Source: Somniosus microcephalus
Lineage: Eukaryota
Assembly: GCA_052327205.1 (NCBI GenBank)
Contig: CM126207.1
Location: forward strand, 51,088,001-51,152,000
Direction of reading: 5' to 3'
DNA length: 64,000 nucleotides
The notes under the pieces are model-generated. The model was not told the DNA's origin, did not search any database, and worked only from the letters and a program-made list of their open reading frames with translations. Below, one piece after another: positions 22,382 to 61,666 of the stretch. A program made the position numbers and the translations under genes. The stretch's first letter is position 1. Each line of letters begins with the position of its first letter.

Positions 22382-24891
22382 GTAGCACATAAATGTTCCA
22401 AATCACATCTAATAGAAAATGTTAGAAGTGTTTTTGGCATAGAACAAAGGGTCAATTTTCTTTGAAACTGATTAACACACTCGTTTGTTCTGCCCATAGA
22501 GTTCATATATATAAATATAAAACTAGAATGTATACCCTATACTTAGTTTTTCTTTTTTCCCTAATGCATGTTCAGTCTGGTATCCTAACAGAACAATGGA
22601 AAATGAGCAGCAAATTGAAAAAAAAATTTTTTAAGTTCTGTTCAGCAAATGACACACAATATGGTAAGGACATAAACTCTATTGAGGATATCAAGTCAAC
22701 TGATTCTGCCAAACTTTGACAATAAGACTTTTTTGTATTTGTTTATGGGATCTGGGCACCGCTGGCAAGGCCGGCATTTATTGCCCATCCCTAGTTGCCC
22801 TTGAGAAGGTGGTGGTGAGCCGCCTTCTTCAACCTCTGCAGTCCGTGTGGTGATGGTACTCTCACAGTGCTGCTAGGTAGGGAGTTCCAGGATTTTGACC
22901 CAGCGACGTTGAAGGATCGACGATATACTTCTAAGACTGGAAGAAGCATCTGCATTTATGAACTGCCAGATTAATAAATGACCATAAATAATGCTAGGGT
23001 TAAATGTAACGTATAGTTACATCCCTGGTGGAATTTAAGTCCTGCGTAATGTTGCTGCAGTGAATACTGTTATATTACAGCAGTCAATCGAGTGCAATTT
23101 TGTTCCCTAGAATACAGATTTGTTTTTAAAAATCTGCTGTTGGAGATCCTTGTCTAGTCATATGCTATTTTTAACCTCTGGTCTGGTCAGCTTTTACCTT
23201 CCAGTTTGAACCTAGATCAGAAAACTGACATTCCCCCTTCTCTGCGGGTGTATGGATCCTGGCTTTCAGTAGACTAAACCTCCTAGTATAAAAAGCTCAT
23301 ATTATAAAAATGACGCAATTTTGACAATTTGGCTCTTCATCCTCAAGGATTAGAAAGAAGTGTTGGAAAATGTAAAAGAGGCCATATAGATAATTGATGG
23401 GGAAAGGAGACTAGGTCTATTTTGAGACTGGGTATAAGGTACGTTTTCAGCTCAAAAGCAGCTTCCACCTTATGTCTTTCTTAGTTGTTACAGAGACATT
23501 AATCCACCCACAGTGGAAAATATTCTTGTTAATTGCACTTCAATTTGATGAGCACATAGAAAACGATGTCATTTCGGAATATCTGAGCGTACTTTTCCCT
23601 CCAAGAGTTATTTAGAATAGTCAGAAATCATTCAGATTCCATCCTGGCTCATATTAAACTAGCATTGCAATTATAATCATTTATTGTCAAAGTAAGTAGG
23701 CCAGAAAACTGCTTGGCGAAACAGTGCCAAAAGCGGAATATTGTGGCGGGAAAGCGAGTGAAGGTCCTCGCACGGAACTTGCTGCTCTGTGAAGTTATAA
23801 TTACATTATTTTAAAGAAAGAATGGTCAACAATCCCTATTGTCGATCATAGAGATTTCTCGATTGATATATTTCGTGTAGAACGAGGGGAATGTGATGAA
23901 AGGAAAACTAAATAAATCCCAGAGAAATAGCGTGTGCCTGTGACAAGACAAATGCTCCTCAGAACCTCGCGCTGAATTTAAACAAAACAAGAAACTGCCA
24001 CCATGACGTATTTTTATGTATTATACGGATTGTAATAAATAAGGAGACTTTTCAGACTTTGTGAAATGCAATTTAACACGTAACAGCTATTAGGACAAAT
24101 GTTACAAACTCTGTATTTCTTTGACCTGCAGTTCACCATCTGTTCAGTTTGTTACATAAATAAACTTTTTATAAATATCTCTCTTTTATAAACATATAAA
24201 TAGTTTAAACATAAATACATTTATGCAGAAATGAAATAAACAATTTATAGTAGCGACAATGTACAGCTGCATTAGTTCCTACAACACGTTCCATCACGTT
24301 TCTTTGCAGTAAGGTCGCTGGTGATGTGGTTCGTCGTACCGGGAGTTATGGCATCGTTTTCGTATTAAACGGTACTTTTAGGGAGACAACAAAGACACAC
24401 AAGTAGTTTTCGGAACCCATCATCAGCCCGGTGTCCTGTGGATAGAAACATAAGGTGTCAGTGTGGCAGGGAGTGAGTGTCGGACACAAGTGTCCCAAAG
24501 TGTAGGGGTGGAAAAACCTGCATTTTGAATTACACTCGGATATGATCTATAGGTTATACTCTGGAAAGTTAACAAAAACTGGTTTAAACAAAAAATGTAA
24601 ACTGTCGAAAACTGTCGTAATGTAACTAAAACACTTTACGTTTCCCTGTTGCAATCACAGTTGGAGTTGATTGAATCTGAGAAACCCTGGATTCCTTGCT
24701 CCCTGAATCGCCGCATCAATCGTGTGGATGCAGCAGAAACCAGCAGCCAGTATTGTAATGGACGCAACAGGCGGCGACGAGAGAAAGTTTCAAAAAAACT
24801 TTTGAGCTAACGTAAATTACCAGCAAAGTAAAACCAAGCGAATTCGAGCAATGCTTGCAACAGTCGCTTACCGTCGCTAGGTGTCGTAGAT

Positions 24892-25152
24892 CTAACAGCC
24901 CAGTCCGCTCATCGCTCCTATTCTGTCCAGCTTGCGTCCGAAACAGCCCTTGGACAAGCCTTTCTTGTTGATTCCTCGGAACCTCCTGGGGTTGTTGTAG
25001 TCGTTGAAAAGCCGAGCCCAGGTGCTCTTTGATCTGGCGTTGAAGCTGAGGTCTCGTAAAAACCGGACCTTGGAATTCACATCTGCAAGGGCACCCCTTT
25101 CTTCTGAGGAAAGGTACTCAGAAAATTCTTCACCTAATAAATGTGCAAGATC
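24892..25152 (-). CDS. NPPC: C-type natriuretic peptide precursor, coding exon 2 (contains CNP-53 at 24895-25053 and CNP-22 at 24895-24960)
   Basis: Acceptor ttttacag|gat at 25152. [86 protein letters not shown]: 17-aa Cys ring ending at the stop codon. Donor gtaag 20 nt after the stop. Lies downstream of COPS7B as in mammals. Confidence 0.96.
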
Positions 25153-25728
25153 CTGTAAAAGGAAGCGGAAATAGGCAATCTTTAGTCATAGTATATAACA
25201 TCGGAATATATTTAAATTAGCTCAGTGTCATTGTTTACCATTATAAACATTATAAATGCTAATCCAGTTATGTATTTCAACCATGCATTAATATTTATAG
25301 CCACCGTATTTATATCTGAATTTGTCACCAAAGACACAATAGGAATGAAACGTGAGATCATTTACTATCAACAATATTGCAATGGGAAAAATAGTATTCG
25401 CAAAAGAAAAATCAATGGTGGTCACAGAAGGGACTGTGTAAACACACTGAAGAAATGCACCTGTTTTAAAAACAAATTATATCATATTCATTTTTAGATG
25501 GTTATTTTTGTAAATATAAAGTTTATTACTTGATTTAAAACAAACATGAAAATATTAATTGCACTGATTTTCAAATGCGAAAGGCAGCAAAGGCTTGCGA
25601 TAAATTTCTAACAATTACTCATTTTAGTTGATTTAGTGATGTAGAGCGTTAGGTTACACAAACACTATGCATGCTTCTTAACACGGATCGCCCATGACTT
25701 GCTATCTGAACAAATGTCATCAACTTAC

Positions 25729-25818
25729 TTGCTGTGACTGAAGCAGGGGCTTTGCATCCGTCCTTGTGGGCAGCAGAGCCAGGAATAGTCCAAATACCAA
25801 AAACGAGGAGATGTTCAT
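25729..25818 (-). CDS. NPPC: NPPC coding exon 1, signal peptide (MNISSFLVFGLFLALLPTRTDAKPLLQSQQ)
   Basis: ATG at 25818, 90 nt, hydrophobic core with TDA|KP cleavage-like site, phase-0 donor caa|gtaagt joining exon 2 in frame (116 aa total). Confidence 0.92.
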
Positions 25819-25947
25819 TCTTGTTTGATCAGGTGGCGAATTCTACGGCTAGATACAATAGAATTAAAGTTGGTGGGTTAAGGTTTGGAGTTCTGTCTGC
25901 CTCTAGATCAAGAGTCGTCTGCTGCTTTCTCGGCAGCTTTTCAATCA

Positions 25948-26000
25948 TTTTATAATATGAAATGACGTCACCCCTTGGAACTTGCGAAGAACAATCAGAG
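25948..26000 (-). promoter_or_regulatory. NPPC core promoter: TATA box, perfect CRE and inverted-CCAAT-like motif
   Basis: TATAAAA on - at 25948-25954, about 130 nt upstream of the ATG; TGACGTCA at 25963-25970; ctgattgt on - near 25992-25999. Confidence 0.8.
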
Positions 26001-39585: not shown

Positions 39586-42500
39586 ATTCCTCCCCTTTTA
39601 GATAAACAGTACATAACATTCATTTAACAACTAAATGATAACTAATTACAATCACAATTACTGTTACTAGATACATTGGTTAAGTTTAAGCAATTATAAG
39701 TTCAGTCTTTGAGGAGGCTTCCTGATTCTGTCTGGATAACGCCTCTTTGGGGTATCAGGTTCTTCTGGCAATGTTGAGTCGGGATCAATGTCGTTGTTTG
39801 GTTCATCTGCTTCCAATATTACCGGTTCTGCGGTAGCTGCAATTGGAACGTCGATTTCATTACCAGGTGTATCAGATCGTGGTGTGGAGTTGACGTTTTC
39901 CAGTGACTCTAGAATCTGGTCAGCATGGCGTCTTACAATGCTCTCCCCAACGTCCACGGTATACATGAGAGGTCCTTGTTTACAAATCGTTCCTGGCTGC
40001 CATTTCTCAGTGCGGTAGTCCTGGGCCAAAACTGGTTGACCTATCTTAAAACTCCTGGTCGGCCTTTCATTCATATTCTGAAACTGCCTGTTCTCCACAT
40101 CTCTTCGGACGTTTGGCTTAACCAAATCCAAGCGGCATCGTAGTCTTCGATTGAAGAACATCATGGCTGGAGTTTGGTTGGTAACCGCATGTGTCGCATT
40201 CCGGTAGGCAAACAAGAAGTTGTCCACCTTGTGCTGTAGGGGTATATCTTCATTACACATTGCCTTGATAGCCTTCTTGAATGTTTGGACAAACCTCTCG
40301 GCCAATCCATTAGTGGCTGGATGATATGGGGCAGATGTGTAATGCTTAACACCATTGTTCTTTAAGAACCTCCGGAACTCTTCAGACACAAACTGTGGTC
40401 CATTGTCAGAGCAAATCTGTTCAGGCAGCCCATTCCTGGCGAATATGGTTCGTAAAACTGTGATAGTTTTTTCCGTGGTGGTTGCGGACATTTTTATTAC
40501 CTCTGGCCACTTTGTGCATCCACCGCAATTAAAAACATCAAGTCCATGAAGGGACCAGCAAAATCAATGTGCACCCTTTGCCATGGAGATGAGGGCCACT
40601 CCCATGGATGCAGAGGAGCTTGTGGTGGGGCGTTTTGGACCTTCTGGCATCCTGCACAGCTCTTGGTCATCTCTTCGATTTCTCTATCGATTCCCGGCCA
40701 CCACACAAATGCTCTGGCTAAGTTCTTCATTTTTACCCCACCCAGATGACCCTCATGAAGCTCATTGAGCACGCTATCCGTCAACTTAGGTGGAATTACT
40801 ACTCTGGATCCACACATCAAGGTTCCTCTGCACACTGACAGCTGCTCTCTTCTCGGCGGGAATGCTGGCAGCAGTGGTTCGCCATGTGCTGACCATCCCT
40901 TCACCGTTAAATCTTAGACCCGTGATAGTGTCGGGTCATTCCGTGTTTCCTTTTCTATGTTTGCATTTGTCACAGGGAGACATTCGACTATGGTCGAGTG
41001 TAATAACTCCATTGGATCCACTGCAAGGTCGTCTTCTTCCACCGTCGGCAACGGTAGGCGTGACAATCCATCAGCATTTCCATGCTGTTTAGTTCCTTTG
41101 TACTCGATGTCATATTGGTGTGCCCCTAGGAAAAGGGACCATCTCTGCAGCCGTTGTGCTGTCATTATCGGTACGCCCTTCTGAGGGTTGAAAATGGAGA
41201 CAAGAGGTTGATGATCGGTTAGTAGAGTAAATTTTTGACCGTGCAGGTAGTGATTGAACTTCTTCACCCCCCACACTAGGCTGAGGGCCTCTCTGTCAAT
41301 CTGGGCGTAGTTACGCTCGGCAGAAGTTAACGAGCGTGACGCAAAAGCTATCGGCCTCTCTAAACCATCAAGGAATTTATGTGACAGTACCGCCCCAATG
41401 CCGTAGGGAGACGCATCACACGCCAGTCTGATCAGCAATGCTGGGTTGTAGTGAGCCAATACTTCCCTTGAAGTGATTAAGTCCTTACTCTTCTGAAAAG
41501 CACGCTTACAATCATCGCTCCATTTCCATGCTACCCCCATTCGTAGCAGGGCGTTCAGTGGGTGCAGAATTGTCGACAAATTCGGCAAAAACTTATGATA
41601 GTAATTCACCAATCCGAGGAATGACCTCAGTTGCGACACATTTTCAGGCGCTGGGGCCTTAACAACCGCTTCAATTTTGTCAGGGGACTTATGTAACCCC
41701 TCTTTCATCAATCACGTGGCCACAATACGATATCTGTTTCTTAAAAAATTCGCACTTGGGGCGGTTGGCTCGCAGCCCATGTTCCCGTAGTCTAGTGAGC
41801 ACCTGTTCTAGGTTGTTAAGGTGTTCACTGTCATCTTCACCTGTCACAAGGATGTCGTCCAAGTAACACTGAGTCCCCGGAATCCCTTGCAGGACTTGCT
41901 CCATCGCTCTTTGCCATATTGCCGGAGCCGATGCTACTCCGAATACCAATCGATGATACTGGTAAAGACCTTTGTGAGTGTTTATCGTGAGATACTTCCT
42001 AGAGGACTCTTCAACCTCCATCTGCAAATATGCTTGTGCTAGGTCAATTTTTGTAAAACGCTTCCCTCCAGACAGTGAGGCAAAGATGTCTTCTATCCTT
42101 GGAAGAGGATATTGTACTGTGTGAAGGACTGGGTTCACCGTCACCTTAAAATCCCCACAGATGCGAATCTTCCTTGGCTCCCCGGACTTATTGCTTAACG
42201 TTTTCTTCATGACAGGAACAATGGGTGTCGCCCACTCGCTCCAGTCGACCTTAGACAACACGCCCGCCTTCTCCAGATTCTCCAGCTCTGCTTCGACGGC
42301 TGGGCGAATTGCATATGGTACCAGTCTTGCTTTGAAAAACTTGGGAACTGCATTCTCTTCTATTTTTATTGAGGCGGTTACGCCTTTAAGCGTGCCCAGT
42401 TCTTGTTGAAATACCTCTTTGGCGTTCGCTAAGATTGTTGACAATCGTCCAGGAGTGACGTCTTCATCTTTTTTACCATCCACCGTCATTGCATGAATGG

Positions 42501-44241
42501 AATGCCAATTAAGTTTATCTTCCTGATCCATTCCCGTCCCAATAACGGTGGTCCACCATTTGGCAGTATGTAGAGATACAATTTCCGTATTTTCTTGCCG
42601 TTGTATTCGACAGGCACCCTTATTTTTCCTCTGGGGTATACTTTTTGCCCCGTATACGTCGTCAAGACGATGGATGTCTGTCTCAAGGGTATGTGTGAAA
42701 ATAGCCGCTCGTAGTCTCGTCGATTCATGATGGTCAGCGCTGACCCTGTATCCAATTCCATTTTAACTTGGGACCCTGCTATCGTGAGGGTGACCCAAAT
42801 GGTTTGGTGATCCTCTTTTGCGATTACATTGTGAAGTTTGAGACAGCTTAGTCTCCTGTTCCCGGATTCACTATCGCTCATCTGGTCTTCGGAACTACTG
42901 TCCGTCATCTTTTGTACTTTCTTGTACGGTTCCTTAGTAGCCTTTTTGTTGTCGCTGGTCTTCTTCCCAGACCTGCAAACTTGTGCAATGTGTCCCATTT
43001 TCCCGCATTGCCTGCATATTTTGTCTTTGGACCAGCAGTCCTTTTGGTCATGGTTAGTTCTGCCGCAGCGATAACATTTTGCAAATCCCCGTGTCATTTC
43101 GTGGGTGCCGTATTCCTGTGGTTTTTGTTGAATTTCTGCAGCTCCCCTGGCTGCTGCTTCATACGATACTGCCACGCTGAAAGCCTTATCTAGCGTCAGC
43201 TCTTTCTCTGAGAGTAACTTCTTCTGTGTTCCTTCACTTAGGAGTCCACAGACAAATTTGTCCCGTAGGGTATCTGCCAGTCCTGCTCCGAACTGGCAGT
43301 GCTTTGATAGCTTGCGTAGTTCCGTAAGATACTCAGCATTGCTCTCATCTTTGTGCTGAGTTCTCCTGTGGAATTTAAATCTTTCTGCTATCAACAGCGG
43401 TGCAGGGTTTAGGTGTTCCTGTAGGACAGCAACAATTTCGTTAAAACTCTTCGGTTTGGCTGGAGTAATCAGGTCCCGCAATAGGCCGTACGTTCTAGCG
43501 CCCATTAAGTTTAGCAATATCGATGCCTTTTTCCCCTCCACTATTTCGTTTGCCTCGAAATATACCTCGACTTTTTCCACATACGTGGTCCAGTCCTCTA
43601 TTGTATTATCAAAAACAGTGATAGTCAGTCTTCGGCATCTTGCAAATCTAAAATGGCGCCTCCCGCGCTTTGCCTTCTTCCCCGATTTTAACAGAATGGC
43701 GCCTCCCGCACTTTGCTGTCTTCCCCACTGATTAAGATGGCGCCTCCCGCGCTTTGCCTTCTTCCCCGCTGTTAGCGCTGCTTTCCACGGTTTCTTGCGC
43801 GTTTATTATTTTTTTAATTTTCCCGTCGTGGAACAACCCTGTGGGACTCTTGCCTCCCTCTTCGCGGGTCTATATGCAGCCCGGCTTCGTAGCACTGGCC
43901 GTGCCCTGTGTGCTCCACCCTCTCTTCTTCCCGACAACGCTGCTCGGCCCCGTTGCAAACCACCCGCTCGAGTTCGCGACCGCTGCAGCCCAGGAAGGAT
44001 CAGTGCACTACCTGCCACCAGCCCGATTAGCTGAAGCACCGTCGACAGGAACCAGGCCCCGCATCCGACAGCTTCTCCAGCAATCTTCAACTCTGCAACA
44101 CAGGGCAGAAGCCCACGGTCGACGCCCGTTTCTACTGCCTCTTACTTTCTTTCTGGCCTCGACCTCTGCTCACTTCGCTGTAGGAATGGATCCCAGGAGG
44201 TGGTGCAGACTGTAGGTAGGTTCGTATCTGCTCGTCGCCAG

Positions 44242-44422
44242 TATTACGTCCGTGAATGATTGAGACACGGACAGCAGGAGTGGAACAAAATAAGTCTTTA
44301 CTGATGGAAGTCAATAGTGAAACTGAAACAACAGAGGCTCACTAGCGCCTTTTATACAGGGGTGGTCACTGCCGGTACTGCAGCCTGAGACCAGTTATTC
44401 TCTTAAAGGTACATACACAACA
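44242..44422 (-). repeat. 5' LTR (181 bp), ends TG...TA
   Basis: Contains TATAAAA and AGTAAA on -; PBS follows immediately. Confidence 0.97.
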
Positions 44423-45728
44423 GATATGTGGTCGGAAGCTCATTTCAGGGTCAAATATGATACCAAGGTTGCGAACATTGTGGTTCAGCCTCAGACAGAT
44501 GCTAGGGAGAGGGATGGAGTCAGTGGTTAGGGAATGGAGTTTGTGGCGGGGACCGAAAACTATGGCTTCGGTCTTCCCAATATTTAATTGGAGAAAATTT
44601 CTGCTTATCCAGAACTGGATGTCGGACAAGCAGTCTGACAATTTAGAGACCGTGGGGTCGAGAGAAGTGGTAGTGCAGCAGAGCTGGGTGTCGTCAGCGT
44701 ATATGTGGAAACTGACGCTGTGTTTTCGGATGATGTTGCCAAGGGGCAACATGTAGATGAGAAATAGGAAGTGGCCAAGGATAGACCCTTGGGGGACACC
44801 AGAGGTAACAAGGTGGGAGCGGGAAGAGAAGCCGTTGCAGGTGATTCTCTGTCTACGATTAGATAAGAATGGAACCAGGCAAGTGCAGTCCCACCCAGCT
44901 GGATGACGGTGGAGAGGCGTTGAAGGATGGAGTGGTCAACCGTGCCAAAGGCTGCAGACAAGTCAAGAAGGACGAGGAGGGATAGTTTACCTTTGTCACA
45001 GTCACAATGGATGTCATTTATGACTTTGATGAGAGCCGTTTCGGTACTGAGGCAAGGGCGGAAACCTGATTGGAGGGATTCAAACATGGAGTTCCGGGAA
45101 AGATGGGCACGGATTTGGGAGGCGACAACACATTCAAGGACTTTGGAGAGGAAAGGGAGGTTGGAGATGGGGCGGTAGTTTGCAAGGACGGAGGGGGTCT
45201 AGGGTTTGTTCTTTGAGTAGAGGGGTGATGACGGTAGATTTGAGGGAGAGGGAGACAGTACCTGAGGAGAGAGAACCATGAACAATGTCAGTTAACATGG
45301 GAGCCAGAAAAGGAAGTTGTGTCGTCAGCAGTTTGGTGGGAATAGGATCGAGAGAACAGGAAGTGGGTCTCATGGACAAGGTGAGCACGGAGAGGTCATG
45401 AGGGGAGATCGGAGAGAAACTGGAGAAAGATGTGTGTACAGGGCTTGGGCAGGGGGGAACCTTAGAGGAAGTTTGGCCCAATGGGCTAGGGGAAAGAAGG
45501 GAAGTGGCAGAGGCAGCTGAACAGATGGTATCAATCTTAGAGACAATGAAGTCCATGAACTTCTCTCACTTGTTTAAGGTGAGGGTGGAGGAGATGGGAA
45601 AGGGGTTTAAGAAGACGGTTAGCAGTAGAGAATAGGAGCTGGTGTTTATCTTTGCATTCCAGAATGATTCTGGAATAGTGAGCAATTTTGGCAGACGAGA
45701 GCAGGGACGATAATGCTTTATCTGGCCA

Positions 45729-48600
45729 TGAGGTAGACTTTGCCATAAAAAATGAACTAGTTGGGCATCTCAGAGACTCTCCTAGCAGTATAAACGAGCG
45801 TCTCATGATTCTTTGGCTCACCCTAGCCCAGAACCAGTGCGCTACGGTCATCAGTGCGTACGCCCCAACACTGGAAGCCACAGACGAGACCAAAGAGGAA
45901 TTCTACTCCAGCCTCGAACAATCCCTGTCCCGAGTCCCAACGGCCGACAAGCTGATCCTCCTTGGCGACTTTAACGCCAGAGTTGGAAAGGACACAGACC
46001 TCTGGGGAGGTGTGATCGGCAGAGAGGGGGTAGGGAAAGCCAACTCCAACAGTACCCTCCTCCTGTCGAAATGCTTAGAACATGGCCTTGTCTCTCTGAT
46101 GGAACAAGGTTTTGGTTATGACAAGTACAAGGCTTCATGGCAGCACCCTCGTTCCAAGCACTGACATCTGGACTACGTCAGCGTCCGAGTGAGGGGCCGC
46201 AAGGACGTCTGCATCATCCGCGCCATGACGAGCTGACGACTGCTGGACAGACCACCGCCTAATCCGCTCTGTCATCTCCATCAATGTAGCCCCAAAACAG
46301 CGGTGGCAACAGAAACAATGCTGCAGGAAAATCAACGCTGGAGCACTCAAAGACCCCGCTAAGAAAGCCCTATTCAGCCTGCGCCTCACAAACAACCTGA
46401 CGACTCCCAGTGATTCAGAAACAGAGTGTCCACAGCACCTGGTCTGCACTCAAGGCCAATATAATCAGCACCTGTGAAGAGACGCTCTGTCACTCGACCA
46501 GGAAATGCCAAGATTGGTTCGACGAGAACGACCAGGAGATCCAGGAGCTAATAAGCCGCAAGCGCAAGGCATTCCTGATCTGGAAACAGCAACAGAACTC
46601 GAGAGCAAGAAAGCAGCTCTACAGACGCCTGAAGGCCGAGGTCCAAGAAAAAACTCGCGACCTAAAGAACAGATGGTGGGTGCAGAAAGCGCAGGAGATC
46701 CAGCAGCTAGCCGACAACCACAATGTGAGTGGATTCTTTAGCGCAATCAAGATCATCTATGGCCCAAGCACCCAAGGTCTTACCCCACTGCGGGCCAAAA
46801 ACGGAGAGGTACTCATCAAGGACAGAGGGGCAGTCAGTGCCCGCTGGAAGGAGCACTTCGAAGATCTCCTTAACCGGAAAAACAACAAGGCCTCAGGAGC
46901 AGATGGAATCCCTGCCGAGGCACTAAAGCATAGCGGAGAAGCACTACTGGCGCGAATTCATGAACTAATTTCCCTTATCTGGAAGGAGGAGTGCATGCCA
47001 GACGCTGTAATTGTGACTATCTTCAAGAAAGGTGACCAGTCCGATTGCGGTAATTACAGAGGAGTTTCCCTGCTGTCTGCCTAGGGAAAGTCATTGCAAG
47101 AATCCTCCTCAATTGCCTTCTCCCAGTGGCCGAAGAGCTCCTCCCAGAGTCGCAATGCGGATTCTGCCCACTAAGGGGCACAATGGACATGATCTTCACT
47201 GCACGTCAATTACAAGAGAAATGCAGGGAACAGCACCAACCACTGTACATGGCCGCCTTTGATCTCACAAAGGCCTTCGACACTGTCAACCGTGAGGGAT
47301 TATGGAGTGTCCTCCTCAAATTTGGCTGCCCTCAAATGTTTGTCACCATCCTCCGCCTGCTTCACGATGACATGCAAGCCGTGATCCTGACCAACGGTTC
47401 CACCACAGACCCAATTCACGTACGGACCAGGGTCAAGCAAGGCTGTGTCATCGCACCAACGCTCTTCTCGATCTTCCTTGCTGCACTGCTCCATCTCACC
47501 CTCAGTAAGCTCCCTGCTGGAGTGGAGCTAATTTACAGAACAAACGGGAAACTGCTCAACCTCCGTCGCCTCCCATCCAGATCCAAGGTCGTCCCATCCT
47601 CTGTCGTCAAATTACAGTATGCAGAAGACGCTTGCGTCTGCGCTCACTCGGAGGTCGAACTCCAAACCATTGTCAACACCTTCACCGAAGCATATGAGAG
47701 CATAGGCCTTACACTAAACATCCGTAAGACAAAGGTCCTCTACCAACCTGCCCCCGCCACACAGTGCTGCCCCCCGATTATCAAAATCCACGACAAGGCC
47801 TTGGACAACGTGGACCACTTTCCATACCTCGGGAGCCTACTGTCAACAAGGGCAGATGTCGATGACTAAGTCCAACACCGCCTTCAGTGTGCCAGTACAG
47901 CCTTCGGTCGCCTGAGGAAGAGAGTGTTTGAAGACCAGGACCTCAGACCCGGCACTAAGCTCATGGTCTACAGAGCAGCAGTGATACCCGCCCTGCTGTA
48001 TGCCTCAGAGACATGGACCATGTACAGCAGGCACCTCAAAGCACTGAAGAGGTACCACCAACGCTGCCTCTGCAAGATCCTGCAAATCTATTGGCAGGAT
48101 AGGCGCACCAACGTCAGTGTTCTCGCTCAGGCCAACATCCCCAGCATCGAAGCTTTGACTACGCTCGATCAGCTCCGATGGATGGGTCAGATCGTCCGCA
48201 TGCCTGATACGAGACTCCCAAAACAAGCGCTCTACTCGGAGCTCCAACTTGCCAAAGAGCCCCAGGTGGGCAGAGGAAACGCTTCAAGGACACCCTCAAA
48301 GCCTCCTTGGAAAAAGTGCAACATCCCCACCGACACCTGGGAATCCCTGGCCCAAGACCGCACAAAGTGGAGGAGAAGCATCCGGGAAGGCACCAAACAC
48401 CTCAAGTCTCTTCACCGGGAGCCAGCGGAAGGAGCGCACGTCAACCCAAGCACCCCACCCATCCGCCGTCTGGCCCCCCCCCCCCCCCCCCCGTGACAGA
48501 GACTGTAGGGTCCTGCATTGGACTCATCAGTCACCTGAGAACTCATTTTTAACGTGGAAGCAAGTCATCCTCTGTTCCAAGGGACTGCCCAAGAAGAAAA
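45729..48600 (+). mobile_element. RTE-clade LINE, 5'-truncated (APE endonuclease plus RT), decayed
   Basis: VISAYAPT, LILLGDFNARVG, ESQCGF, FDLTKAFDTVNRE, VKQGCVIAPTLFSIF, FPYLGS, LLYASETW; 3' end gggactgcccaagaagaaaa. Confidence 0.93.
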
Positions 48601-50085: not shown

Positions 50086-50804
50086 GGTTCAAAAAGAATG
50101 TTGGAGCATGAGTGCTGGGTTGATTTTGATTCAGGATTTAACGATGGGTTTCAAACCATCTTTTCCTAATCAAAAGCCAAAGTTGATTTTGGTATGTGTA
50201 AATTCCAGCTATAGAGATCTGTAATGTATGATCATGGCTCGAAACTTTATTGGGATGAGCAGCTGACAAAATTGAACTTTATTCTGATTGGAAGCAGGTC
50301 TGAGCGGTCTTCAAAATCCTAAAAGACATGGATTTTTTTGATCAGCGGTGTCCAGCTTGCATACCATAGGCCATATATAAAGCCCTTGCAATACAGCATT
50401 GAAGCCCAGGCAAATCAGACTTGTTGCTTTTCTATTTCTTATTTTTGATTGTCTTCTTTGAATTTTGTGGGCGTGGAGCTTTGAAAAGGGCTGATTTTAG
50501 ACGTATTGCCTCATTGATCGATAAATCCTGCTTTCTAAGCTTTAGAAATGTGTAGCAAACATATTATGTAGCAAGAGATATATATTTTGAAAAGCAAAAT
50601 ATTTTGAATAAACATAATTAAGATAAAGGTATTTATTGTGCTGGTATTTTTATATGATGATGGCATATTGCTTTAAAGCTATTTTAGATATTTAATTTTG
50701 GATTTTCTAGGATAATATCGTATTTTACATCAGATGTTGATATGTATTATTTTCTCTACAGCTTCACTTGGTCTCTTTATTTGTGACTGTATCAACATCA
50801 CCAA

Positions 50805-51687
50805 ATGGATCATTCAGGACAAGCAAAGGAAACATTTCCCTCTTTTGATGCAAGAAATGGTCACAGTAAGATTGGCAATCCACAAAAAAATGCTTATTCT
50901 AGGCTGGTAAACCAGCACCGTAGTGGCAGGTTTAGAGCATATCTAAATCAATTTGCTCAGCAGATCAGTTGTATAGACCAAAATGATGAAAGTGGAATTA
51001 CTCCTGTGACTGATTTGAATCTTTCAGAAGTGGAAGCTGTGCAACGAAAGGATATTAATAACCAACAAAAACTAGGAGGAAACGCAAAAACCAGCCACTC
51101 TGCATTTGCAGTGGACATTGACAGCACTACCCTATTTCCAAACATGCCTGTTAATTTTTTGGAAAAAGTTGGGGATGCCGGTGAGACAGTTATGCCTGAC
51201 TCTTGGAAGAAGAAGCAGCAGGGGTTGGCAACCAGAAAGCAAAACAAGCAAAGAGATACCAACACCAGCCAGGATGGAGATACTGAATCGGGAAATGAAG
51301 TTATGTTCAAAGAAACTAGGCCTAAACAAGTCCAGCCAAAAACACTTTCAGACAGTCACAAAGAGTTTGCAGGGTTTGCAAAAACAGCAACTGCTGGCGA
51401 TAGTGATCGTTACTCTGGGTCTGCATTGCCAAGGCATAAATCGCCTTTTGACAATTGTATTCAGAGTGTTGATCTAGGGAGAACAGAGAATGATGTACAA
51501 GTAACTAATGAGCTGGAAGTGCAGAATAATAAGAAAAAGAGAAATAGAAGAAAGAGCAAAGGGAAAACTGACCTAAGCTTGGGTGTAACTCCGTGTTCAG
51601 ATGGAGTCTGCATTGGAGACCAAGTTACTGCACTTCATGATTTGGAATCTACACAGCCAGAGAAAGCCAATATCGACCATGTGCAAA
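50805..51687 (+). CDS. DIS3L2: Probable first coding exon of DIS3L2 (exon 50762-51687), encoding a long low-complexity N-terminal region
   Basis: Non-repetitive 304-codon ORF; acceptor tttctctacag at 50761; donor aaa|gtaaga at 51688 gives phase 1. Assignment rests on synteny and exon layout; no RNB domain is seen in the window. Confidence 0.62.
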
Positions 51688-54600
51688 GTAAGACAATAGA
51701 AGATACATTTCACTATTAAAACTTGTTGAATTCCTCTGTTGTAAGTATTAATGGATTAATTTTAATCTGTTTGCAAAATACTCCCAAGAATTAATTCAAT
51801 TTGAAAATTAATTTCCTCAAAATACAAATGCTTAGACATAGTGCTGTAATTTGTGTGGGCCTTGCAATGGTTCAAATTATAGTCAGTGTCCCTTAACCAG
51901 GATGGCAGGTAGGAATAAAGTTCATCCAAACTGAGCCAAGAAAAAAATTAAAGCTTTAAAAGCTTTGGGAATTGATTTGCTTTTGGTGAAAATGACACCA
52001 TTAATTGTGTCCTGTTGTGATCTTGCAAACAATTGCATTGCATTTAATATATTAATTCCTGTCCACAAGCATTACTTCCTGTAACGCCTTTTATGTCAAC
52101 ATTTTCAATAGAAATTGCCTATTATAAACATTTATAATAGGAAAGCACCCTATCTAAATGTGTTACAAATGTTGGTCTGCCTTACTCTGTTACAGAAAGG
52201 TCATTCCCATAAGTGGTTCGAGCTTTCTCTATTCAGAAGTGTGCGTGTACTGCCCAATAGCGAATTAATAATAGCATCACCCAGGACTGTAGAAATAGGA
52301 CCTTGTGATCTGAACTGGATATCATGCCTTTTGCACATGTCCTTCAATCTTTTCAAAGGCAGACCGAGTAAACACTTTTTAGTATGTTGTGGCCAGATAT
52401 GAATTGTTGAGCTGCTTTATTTACAGACAGCAAATTAATGTACAGAGTAACAGTAGTAATCAAATCTCATCTTGATTCAACTAACTACAAAGCCCATCTT
52501 GGGAACAAGATAAGTAATAAAAATATGCCACACTGCTCCACCTAACTTTTCTGGGCTCCTGATCCTGACTGGTTCTGGGCTTCAGATGACTGCGTTTCCA
52601 CTCATTAGGCATGCTTCCTTCCCCAATGTAGCTGGTTGGATGACTGCTTATCCGTCTTTATCCTTTTCTCTCTGTGTTTCCACAAAGTCAGATGGCCGCC
52701 CCTCTGACTCAGTCCCCATTCAATGACTTGCTGGTAGGCCTGTCAACCAGACTGACTACTTTTCCTCCCCCTTTGAGGTGTGGCTCTCCAGACACCATTT
52801 CCTGTTCCACTCAAAATAAATAGGGACCATCGTAGCTTAATGAATCAGGGTTGAGTGAATTGACTTTCATTGTCTCTATTTGAAGTAGATGATAAACTGA
52901 CATTCTACAAGCTGGCTTGTCTAACTTGAACAAACATCTTTAATGGCTGCAGTGGGTGGCTTTTAAACCTGTATAAATTCATTTTGTTTTGAATACAACA
53001 CTTAAACATCCCCAAATCCTATGTGCCTGTCTGGCGTTAGCTTACGACTGAGTAAGATTTTTTTTGCAATTGAGCATCAGGAAGCCCAAAGCTATTGGAG
53101 TAGAATTTGCTGCATTGGTGAGATCAGCAGCGTACGCTGTACCTTTCGCCATTTTGTGTGCTGATCCTGCCGTTGCTAACTTAATCCAAAATTTCCTGGC
53201 TTTCTAATGAGAATACACTGCAGTGAGCATAACCGTGAATCTGAAGTGGCACAACCAACGGCTAGTATATTGATCCCATAATGTTAATGGTGCAATTTCT
53301 TTGTTATGGTGATATTAGCTCTGAACTCAACAGAAATTTTTATAATAAAATGAAGCCTTTTCACCACTACGGGAAATGTATCCAAATAACCTTTGCTGAG
53401 CCTAGTAAAAACTATCAATCTGTAAAGCATTCAACTGCAAATGTGTAGCTTATAATTGGGAGTTGTCAGTTTCACAATATAAAATAAACATTTGAAGATG
53501 TAAAAATGTAACGATTCTGCTTAAGTCTGTACGAAAAGGCAAATTTATATATAGAAGTTACTATGATGTGGATATTGAAGAAATCAATCTTGATTACAGC
53601 TGACTCTTGCACTGTTTAACTGTACTGTTAGAACATGCATATACAAAGTTGTCTTTAATACCAGAAGTTGCTTCAGAGAAGGTGAAACCGAAACGGGCTT
53701 TTTACTTGATGAAATGGATATTGCAGCTTTCGTATTCTCTGCACTGATGGCGTTGATCAGCTGTACATTAGGACAATTTCATCACCATTAATTTATTTAT
53801 GTTCCCATTTACCCCGAATAGCAACTAGTTACTGTGTTGCGTTTTCAATCAGTCTCCGTGTTGGATGATACTCTGGTCTGTCTTGGGTACAGATAAGCAA
53901 CAGTGTCTCTGAGCAGGTAGAAGAGAGGGTAGATAAAGAAATAATGTGTGTGTATATAGGGAGGGAAAAGAAAGAGGTGTTACGTGACAAGGCCAACAAT
54001 ACATTTATTCTAATTGAACTGAATTGCAGACCCAGTAAAGTGTCCCAGGCCAACCCCCTACCACACACAAACATCCAAAACATGCCTATACAGTACTTAC
54101 TTGCTACTTGGCATGTATTTATTAAAATATTCTCGTTTATCAGCAGTATGATCTCTTAGACCTTCATAATTTCTGTCTCGTACCAGCTCATACATATGTA
54201 AGACATGACTCGCATTTGGTAAAGTAATGCTCTTTTAACGCTAATTGATTCCAGAAATTAATTTGTTCTACCTGCTTGATCGGATAGAAATCATGTCCCT
54301 GTGCACAAGGATAAGCACGTCTTCCTCTAATATCTTCCTTAATTATCTAATAGCTGCATTAATTCTGCCTCTGTTGAACCACTTTCTACATTATTATGCA
54401 AATGAAGGACACTAGCAGTGCTGTGTAAACACCATGCCTAATATACTTTGACTGCAAGTTACAGACCATTTAGAAAGGCTCTCAATTGAACTTCTGGTGG
54501 ACCCTTTCAATCCATAAATCACACTGCTGTCAGGTCACTACTGCCATTATTTTTCAATCCAAGTGGCAGTGACAAGAAAACATTCGTTAATTAAGGAAAT

Positions 54601-58649: not shown

Positions 58650-60228
58650 ACATAGAAACATAGACATAGAAGATAGGAGCAGGAGTAGGCCATTCGGCCC
58701 CTCAAGCCTGCTCTGCCATTCAATGCGATCATAGCTGATCATCCAAATTCAATACCCAGTCCCTGCTTTCTCCCCATACCCCTTGATCCCTTTAGCCTTA
58801 AGAAATATATCAAACTCCTCGAATATATTTAATGAATTGGCCTCTACTGCCTTCTGTGGTAGAGAATTCCACAGGTTCACCACTCTGGGTGAAGAAATTC
58901 CTCCTCATCTCAGTCCTAAATGGCCTACCCCTTATCCTTAGACTGTGACCCCTGGTTCTGGACTCCCCGACCATCGGGAACATCCTTCCTGCATCTAGTC
59001 TGTCCAGTCCTGTCAGAATTTTATAAGTTTCAATGAGATCCCCTCTCATTCTTCTAAACTCCAGTGAGTAAAAGCCCAATCGACCCAATCTCTCCTCATA
59101 CGTCATTCCTGCCATCCCAGGTATCAGCCTGGTGAATCTTCGCTGAACTCCTTCCATGGCAAGAACATCCTTCCTCAGATAAGGTGACCAAAACTGCACA
59201 CAATACTCAAGGTGTGGTCTCACCAAGGCCCTGTACAACTGCAGCAAGACATCTTTGTTCCTGTACTCGAACCCTCTCGCTACGAAGGCCAACATACCAT
59301 TTGCCTTCTTAACCGCCTGCTGCACCTGCATGCTTACCTTCAGCGACTGGTGCACAAGAACACCCAGGTCTCGTTGCACTTCCCCTTCTCCCAATCTATT
59401 GCCATTCAGATAATAATCTGCCTTCCTGTTTTTACCACCAAAGTGGATAACCTCACATTTATCCAAGTTATATTGCATCTGCCATGCTTCTGCCCAATCA
59501 CCCAACCTGTCCAAATCATCCTGGAGTTTCTCGGCATCCTCCTCACAGCACTCACGCCCACCCAGCTTTGTGTCGTCTGCAAATTTGAAGATATTACATC
59601 TAGTTCCCTTGTCTAGATCATTAATATATATTGTTAATATCTGGGGTCCAAGGACCGATCCCTGCGGTACCCCACTAGTCACTGCCTGCTACTCGGAAAA
59701 AGACCCGTTTATTCCAACTCTCTGCTTTCTGTCTGCCAACCAGTTCTCTATCCAAGTCAATACCTTGCCCCCAATCCCATGTGCCCTAACTTTACATGCT
59801 AATCTCTTATGTGGGACCTTATCGAAAGCCTTCTGAAAGTCCAAATACACCACATCCACTGGTTCTCCCTTATCTATTTTAGCAGTTACATCCTCAAAAA
59901 AATTCCAGTAGATTAGTCAAGCACGATTTACCTTTTGTAAATCCATGTTGACTTTGTCCGATCCTGTCACTGTTTTCCAAGTGCTCTGCTATTACATCTT
60001 TTATAATGAACTCTAGCATTTTCCCCACTACCGATGTCAGGCTTACCGGTCTGTAATTCCCCGTTTTCTCTCTACCACCTTTTTTGAATAGTGGGGTAAC
60101 ATTAGCTACCCTCCAATCCATGGGTACTGTTCCAGATTCCATCGAATGTTGGAAGATGATCAGCAATGCATCTACTATTTCTAGGGCCACTTCCTTAAGT
60201 ACCCTAGGATGCAGATTATCAGGCCCTA
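58650..60228 (-). mobile_element. Relatively young CR1 LINE, 5'-truncated, with a 290-aa open RT segment
   Basis: ORF 58810-59682 [30 protein letters not shown]; upstream GPDNLHPRVLKE..NYRPVSLTS. Confidence 0.93.
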
Positions 60229-61666
60229 GCTCAATGCATTGAAACTCCAGCATGCTACGTGTACAGAATTGTAATTCAGTTAGTAGTTGTTTCAGTTCCT
60301 CATTAGTAATCTTCTCTGCTTTGGCATGTTTCATGCTCTGAAATAAACTACACAAACTAGTGAATGAAATTGTATTCCAGATGTGAAGATGTCCACAAGT
60401 ACATATATTTACTTCCACAGAACTTTGTTTTTTGTTTTCCACCTAGGCCAGGGGGGCCAGACGTCCTGACATTTCTCTCCTCCCCGTCCTAGTAACCATC
60501 TCAGGACCAGCGTGTACAGGTGACCTTGGTTGCATTTGTTGGTCTTGGAAACCATGGTTAATATGGCTTTACTGGAAACTGTAATTTGATCAATTATCAA
60601 AACTAGTTCAAGTACTAAAGCTTCAGTACTTTTGTCATCAGCCAATAGTGACTTCCTTTTAAAGTGAAGTATTTTGGGAGTTGGTGTGTGGAGAGTCACC
60701 TTGCCCTCTTGTTCTGTGGAATTATCACACGTTTTGAATTACCTCCTAAGCTAATGGATATACAGCATAAATCGAGCTCCATTGCGTGCATTTAGCAGCT
60801 GTGCTTTTCACTGGCTGGCATTGGTGCATTCTGTGGAGTTGTATCTCTGTTTTTCTGCCATATCAAAGGTGTGTGGCACATTAATCCCCGTTCAGTCTTG
60901 CTTTTCTGATCAGAAAAGAGCGAAAGAAAGACTTGCATTTATATAGCGCTTGTCACGACCACCAGTCGTCCCAAGGTGCTTTACAGCCAATGAAGTACTT
61001 TTTTATCAGACTTACTTTAAGCCTATAGCTTCTATAAATTGAATGTTCCCAATATGGAAACATTAATATTGCATCTAGGTTTAAAATTGGTCAGGAGAGC
61101 TTTTGAGCTGGTTGTTAATGTGTCTTCTGATCAATTCTTATCAAAGGTGATAACATTTGCCTCCACCTAACTAATCCGACCCATCTTATTGGTATGATCA
61201 AGAAGGTTCCATAATATGGACATCAGAAGGACTTTTGCATTCTATGTAGTCAGATTTTGTTTGCTAGTGCTCCTGTGAAGCGCCTTGGGACGTTTTATGA
61301 TGTTAAAGGCGCTATATAAATACAAGTTGTCGCCAGGGCCAAGGCCCTTTGGATACACTTGAGTGGAGTTTATAGGGAAGCAAAATAATAGGTTTGCCTA
61401 TATCTGTGAAATCGAGTGACATGTCGTTAGATGGCAGATCACCAGGACAGCTGTTTCTGCTGCATAAGCTTAAAGGATGTTTTCAAAACGGAGATATAAA
61501 GTAATTTGTACAATTACAATAGATATTATAGCCTTGATCTTGCTGCCAAGTTGGTCACGCAGATTTGTACTTGGAGGGGAAGGAAAACCTGGGGCGTGAA
61601 GGAGTACTTTCTGTTTAAATACTCCCCCACCCATCTTCATGCTAAAAACAATACATGTATTTATGT

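Follow-up and report, generated by a model that had tools for sequence, protein, structure and literature searches.

The Leu9-Lys10-Leu11 triad of mammalian C-type natriuretic peptide (CNP-22) is important for the activation of NPR-B; the open-access literature gave nothing usable on this triad, on an alanine scan of CNP or on named neprilysin sites. In the accessible accounts, the mammalian CNP gene, NPPC, is composed of three exons, with 30 codons in exon 1 and a non-coding exon 3, and its precursor gives a 53-residue furin product. According to the accessible part of PMC11172276, ANP and BNP derive from CNP-3 and NPPC from CNP-4, and zebrafish has four CNP paralogues and a divergent CNP-4 ring (PMC10454581, accessible part). 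The CNP-4 peptides of teleosts, gar and bowfin (for example those of Oryzias latipes and Anguilla) bear His9, and those of teleosts usually have Met or Ile at position 11 and Met20; in carp relatives CNP-4 has gained a tail. Human BNP (PDB 3n56 and 1yk1) and teleost BNP carry Arg at ring position 4, the equivalent of position 9 in CNP-22. The elasmobranch cardiac CNP (CNP-3 type; Triakis P55208 and Scyliorhinus P23259) has a tail-less ring with Val9, and published shark physiology, in the portions accessible, concerns this paralogue and not CNP-4.

Here we analysed a stretch of 64,000 nucleotides from Somniosus microcephalus, hereafter the window, which contains an intact NPPC (CNP-4) gene of three exons encoding 116 residues with zero internal stops. 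The precursor matches the Pfam ANP family (PF00212) with an E value of 2.6e-13 and 50.3 bits against a cut-off of 27, so the match is not due to chance, and it contains the 17-residue ring between two Cys together with the conserved core of the family. Translation bears out two readings of the preliminary description: residue 9 of the mature peptide is Arg, encoded by CGC, and the 22-mer is tail-less as in CNP, since TAG follows the Cys codon and exon 3 starts beyond the stop. The positions of these features are listed in the table below.

Features of the NPPC (CNP-4) gene, in window coordinates.
Feature	Position	Strand	Description and basis
Candidate proximal promoter	25948..25970	-	CRE-type palindrome 25970-25963 and TATA-like box 25954-25948, read from sequence
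Exon 1, coding part	25729..25818	-	ATG at 25818; 30 codons for signal peptide and first pro-region residues; aligns to shark orthologue N-termini
Intron 1	25153..25728	-	576 nt, GT..AG, phase 0; skipped exactly in contigs of runs X17 and X18
Exon 2	24872..25152	-	Pro-region, mature peptide, stop codon 24894-24892, 20 nt of 3' UTR
Predicted furin site R-x-x-R, residues 60-63	25054..25065	-	Motif and length; processing inferred from human proCNP
Lys-Lys preceding CNP-22, predicted second cleavage site	24961..24966	-	Inferred
Mature CNP-22	24895..24960	-	17-residue disulfide ring 24945-24895; ends at Cys, tail-less
Arg9 codon CGC	24934..24936	-	Read from sequence
Intron 2, within 3' UTR	24436..24871	-	436 nt; skipped in contigs of runs X9, X11, X17 and X18
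Non-coding exon 3, start	24300..24435 (start only)	-	Contig alignments of relatives

A cut at the first R-x-x-R motif would yield exactly 53 residues (CNP-53, 25053-24895), with human proCNP processing as the model (PMC5766980 and PMC9312265, accessible parts), and the human exon layout also matches that of the window gene (PMC5766980, accessible part). A second R-x-x-R motif at 24973-24984 (-), residues 86-89, lies just ahead of the Lys-Lys pair and could release a 27-residue form; it is present in several shark orthologues, not in all. Upstream of the gene, a perfect palindrome that we take to be of the CRE type stands a few bases before a presumed TATA-like box, about 130-150 nt ahead of the ATG. 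The spliced contig of a relative starts at 25923, which is compatible with this candidate promoter and cannot prove the transcription start. Contigs from four organisms skip intron 2, and two of these runs skip intron 1 as well; NPPC is spliced as predicted in the relatives, with the Arg codon in place.

A maximum-likelihood tree built from 65 precursors places the window protein among sharks in a clade of 33 rows (support 98/95) that holds mammalian, turtle, amphibian, lungfish, coelacanth and teleost (including medaka) CNP-4/NPPC; the shark subclade itself has weak support (81/75). In sequence similarity the nearest shark records are those of squalomorphs. Human NPPC stands head to head with DIS3L2. 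The same arrangement is found here, with NPPC on the minus strand of C6 at 51.11 Mb and DIS3L2-type exons (RNB and Dis3l2_C_term domains) on the plus strand at C6:51.29-51.50 Mb, 180-385 kb away. The comparison of neighbours also covered a PDE-delta-family match 9.5 Mb away. From the tree clade, the DIS3L2 exons, the exon layout and the 53-residue product, we conclude that the window gene corresponds by orthology to mammalian NPPC (CNP-4). A BNP orthologue or a hybrid gene was rejected on the tree, the locus and the absent tail: BNP is tailed, belongs to another clade and comes from the CNP-3-derived locus, and the CNP-3-type genes of this genome lie on C25 in a clade separate from that of the window gene on C6. 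Early DIS3L2 exons were not found in the window by a motif search, and a Pfam search for the first domain of DIS3L2 missed this locus. Between NPPC and the core exons of DIS3L2, a frame of 310 codons at 50787-51719 (+), the strand of DIS3L2, is free of stops; it does not look repeat-like, returned no usable match in the ESM Atlas and is possibly a large early exon.

Compared with mammalian CNP-22 (PDB 1jdp chain H), which likewise has no tail, 20 of 22 residues are the same; the window peptide has Arg for Leu at position 9 and Ala for Ser at position 16, and Ala16 is common in amphibians too. The preliminary description spoke of a BNP-like ring. This wording did not hold, for the likeness is confined to one residue: counted by hand from the alignments, 15 of 17 ring positions are identical to human CNP and 13 of 17 to human BNP.

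Arg9 is shared by 11 of the 12 named shark orthologues (protein search and cluster members), Scyliorhinus torazame having Gly and none having Leu. These twelve comprise Heptranchias, Pristiophorus, Heterodontus, four carpet sharks, two mackerel sharks and three ground sharks, and the count omits two mis-spliced models that contain no ring (P0022 and P0129). Shark records also stood on top of the initial protein search, which returned 20 proteins. The predicted precursors of Heptranchias perlo (XP_067850742.1) and Pristiophorus japonicus (UniRef100_UPI00398F1AAC) are likewise 116 residues long and have a mature 22-mer identical to that of the window; both records are predictions only, with a few differences in the signal peptide and pro-region, and the Heptranchias precursor is 92% identical to that of the window over 116 columns. 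Such records are annotated as 'C-type natriuretic peptide 2-like/4-like' in RefSeq/UniRef. The mature peptide sequence is already known from RefSeq for other sharks, and the finding in itself is ordinary. No report of shark CNP-4, of its Arg9 or of an Arg9 assay was found in the open-access literature, a coverage outside which most subscription journals fall, and the accessible parts of PMC9014859, PMC9219923, PMC9180634 and PMC6878697 hold nothing bearing on position 9 or on sharks; this silence is weak evidence of novelty.

The preliminary description had allowed that the Arg codon might be an error of assembly or a private variant, since CGC differs from CTC (Leu) by a single base. We rejected this explanation, whose probability we consider close to nil, on the orthologues and the run contigs: the substitution recurs in the shark orthologues and in Callorhinchus, two named species have the very same 22-mer, and no change to a Leu codon appears in the seven runs whose contigs cover the codon (X1, X2, X9, X11, X17, X18 and X20). 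Eight of 22 listed runs, from several organisms and studies, were aligned, X21 being unreadable at the codon. None of the listed runs is recorded as RNA, a blank entry that carries no evidential weight. The comparison used assembled contigs only, not raw reads, so rare alleles are invisible in it, and the X2 contig is identical to the window throughout and may be its source; these points are what the error explanation retains. The alignment of orthologues proposed at the outset, run for sharks and a chimaera, thus found Arg9 widespread and supports the view that the residue is real and deserves an assay.

The chimaera orthologue (Callorhinchus milii XP_007900593.1, P0130) has Arg9 in a ring altered at positions 7 and 8, on a long branch. 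Given these ring changes and the branch length, its Arg9 could be of independent origin. Residues 7 and 8 of Callorhinchus CNP-4 are Tyr and Arg, whereas almost every other member of the family has Phe and Gly there; the peptide may be degenerating or have become specialised as a ligand. No NPPC/CNP-4 of a ray or skate was recovered among the best 120 of 516 protein matches and the 20 unnamed proteins named from 125 representatives; CNP-3-type, CNP-2-like and receptor proteins of rays were recovered in the same searches, and in the tree the ray peptides join either CNP-3 or, with long branches, the CNP-2-like set. It is possible that batoid NPPC was lost, diverged strongly, or lies hidden in a cluster or below the listed matches. 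On present alignments, the best reading is that Arg9 is an old cartilaginous-fish substitution shared by a chimaera and almost every shark examined. That it has been retained in a chimaera and in six orders of sharks suggests that selection, and not indifference, has kept it.

The family survey shows how variable this position is. Among 125 representatives, 115 have a readable ring and 99 of these are tail-less; in the tail-less set, position 9 holds 10 different residues and reaches 2.36 bits, the maximum of the ring, followed by position 17 (2.28), and Arg13, Ile14, Ser18, Gly21 and both Cys are invariant. Hydrophobic residues (L, M, V, I or F) occupy position 9 in 87 of the 99, and Arg occurs in just two, both chondrichthyan (a shark and a chimaera). 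In the 113 non-shark matches, the best-scoring, teleost-rich part of 516, the residue is His in 67, Leu in 42, Gln in 2, Thr in 1 and Tyr in 1. The conservation of Leu9 claimed earlier is borne out by just 42 of these 113 matches, and is too strong a statement outside tetrapods. Lamprey CNP has Gly at this position. Since Leu9 is found in bichir, sturgeon, coelacanth, lungfish and tetrapods, the bony-vertebrate ancestor would have had Leu9, and the chondrichthyan ancestor would have had Arg9. The best reading of the alignments is that position 9 is a tolerant site.

A review, in its accessible part, states that Leu9 is functionally important for the action of CNP on the dogfish rectal gland (PMC11000733). 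This raises a second explanation, in which Arg9 markedly weakens NPR-B activation and leaves CNP-4 as a low-potency or NPR-C-biased peptide, with the Val9 cardiac CNP-3 doing most NPR-B signalling. The drift of the chimaera orthologue at Phe7 and Gly8 along its long branch would fit this explanation, as would the missing ray CNP-4, as if the gene were dispensable, and the wide range of peptides that NPR-C accepts (bioRxiv 10.1101/2020.07.09.196394, accessible part). However, sharks keep the remainder of the ring, both processing sites and the exon layout intact; many bony fishes have a CNP-4 with His9, so that a polar residue fits a retained gene; and missing from protein lists does not mean missing from ray genomes. 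We regard a marked weakening as unlikely.

A family search identified four natriuretic peptide genes in the genome, all ending at Cys: the window CNP-4, a tandem pair of CNP-3 type on C25 (Val9 in both) and a CNP-2-like gene on C38 (Met9). Of these genes, CNP-4 alone encodes a charged residue at position 9, and published shark physiology, in the parts accessible, covers one of the four CNPs. The lineage had been described as lacking ANP and BNP, and neither the family search nor a killifish BNP query revealed a tailed gene here; the query returned the same four genes plus one match containing stops at E 3.5, and no convincing fifth. Both searches score the best candidates only, so the absence of a tailed ANP/BNP is not proven. 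One candidate for a hidden tailed ANP/BNP, a 14-residue match of the family search with E 4 inside a retroelement-looking stretch, was rejected. The C25 pair (C25:33,080,092-33,088,813, minus strand) looks intact and tail-less, with its members 8.6 kb apart in tandem, and is the kind of locus where ANP and BNP arose; the second member groups with chimaera and stingray paralogues in the tree.

Comparison of ten receptor-family exons identified three natriuretic receptors, of NPR1, NPR2 and NPR3 type, each by its first exon only. The NPR1-type exon, on C41 at about 4.394 Mb (locus L047:447-1139, minus strand), is 79-91% identical to four shark NPR1-like proteins, 78% to a fifth and 44-50% to NPR2 proteins; NPR1-like records also exist in other sharks and in four rays. 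The NPR2-type exon is 75-85% identical to four shark NPR2 proteins. The genome has an NPR-A-type receptor, and the searches found no tailed ligand for it. The NPR2-type and NPR3-type first exons stand head to head 280 kb apart (C2:294.66 Mb and 294.94 Mb). Human NPR2 and NPR3 lie on different chromosomes. The NPR3-type exon may be NPR3 proper or a paralogue.

This setting opens a third explanation, namely that Arg9 makes the tail-less CNP-4 a dual or NPR-A-preferring agonist, the missing ligand of shark NPR-A. An NPR1-type exon is present, all four natriuretic genes are tail-less, and CNP-4 alone among them carries a charge where the others have Val, Val and Met; human and killifish BNP have Arg at the equivalent position. 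In the accessible part of PMC10095932, peptides active at human NPR-A typically have polar or positive residues at ring positions 4-5, and a krait ring, although it has no tail, is still able to activate rat NPR-A. The structural evidence, as far as the source is accessible, nevertheless appears to weigh against such a switch, the tail being needed. In the rat NPR-A crystals (bioRxiv 10.1101/2020.07.09.196394, accessible part), the three residues behind the ring are counted by the authors as one of four essential features, and this tail builds a pseudo beta-sheet. Leu11, Gly15 and Met17 of the window peptide are of the CNP type, and the CNP-3 genes of the heart, whose locus gave rise to ANP and BNP (PMC11172276, accessible part), are at least equal candidates. 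We judge NPR-A agonism of this kind to be quite unlikely. Its evolutionary form, in which CNP-4 gained the BNP-type Arg at ring position 4 before the split of sharks and chimaeras and so became a natural tail-less NPR-A agonist by a second, independent route, seems to us a distinctly improbable course.

The receptor contacts of position 9 were compared in the alignments. In rat NPR-A, the equivalent residue is a Gly among waters in ANP, and in DNP a His stacked between Arg162 and Phe165 (bioRxiv 10.1101/2020.07.09.196394, accessible part). Among the 120 receptor matches, the 119 that are readable all have Arg162, NPR1 and NPR2 alike, and residue 165 is Tyr in 79 and Phe in 40. No co-evolution of the receptors at rat positions 162 and 165 was seen in sharks within these 119. 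The human NPR-A chain has Glu162, and the sharks have Arg there, with no acidic change, so the pairing of human BNP with its receptor need not carry over. Judged from these alignments, sharks have no compensating change of their own at the two contacts, which do not tell the receptors apart and give no ground for predicting that NPR-A activity was gained. The PDB searches returned no NPR-B chain, and the pocket argument is accordingly borrowed from NPR-A.

Taken with these contacts, we consider it likely that CNP-4 still acts as a local activator of NPR-B and a ligand of NPR-C, with Arg9 at most tuning its potency; the NPR-B-type and NPR-C-type first exons in the genome were counted for this reading. 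Furin would trim the secreted precursor to CNP-53, and cleavage at Lys-Lys would give CNP-22, whose ring would close and locally activate NPR-B, raising cGMP, before clearance via NPR-C and neprilysin. Side chain 9 would sit in a roomy spot near an Arg and an aromatic residue of the receptor, as in the NPR-A crystals, and would hence be tolerated; Arg9 would probably alter potency modestly and not the choice of receptor. Counting against this reading are the long retention of Arg9, the hydrophobic residue in 87 of 99 tail-less representatives against Arg in two, the polar or positive ring residues 4-5 typical of peptides active at human NPR-A, the NPR-A for which no tailed ligand was found, and the dogfish review on Leu9. 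Regarding protease resistance, a minor neprilysin site before Leu9 is presumably lost with Arg9. A large effect is unlikely on the sequence, since the first neprilysin cut of CNP, between Cys and Phe (PMC5766980, accessible part), is retained.

The testable gap is that sharks and rays have NPR-A genes, and that the searches of this genome found four CNPs, all tail-less, and neither ANP nor BNP. If Arg9 CNP-4 activates NPR-A, the ligand of this receptor would be named and one ring residue could replace the tail, which would bear on how ANP/BNP selectivity evolved and on the design of dual NPR-A/NPR-B peptides. If it does not, Arg9 would be a lineage marker at a tolerant site.

Elsewhere in the window, frames at about 39,700-43,800 (-), 44,400-48,500 and 58,800-60,400 resemble by eye a broken LTR retrotransposon, with gag, protease, reverse transcriptase and integrase pieces, and several LINE-type fragments. 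On C6, at about 5.0-8.2 Mb and 12.7-13.5 Mb, there are large tandem clusters of ANF_receptor-family exons, which are probably class C chemosensory receptors.
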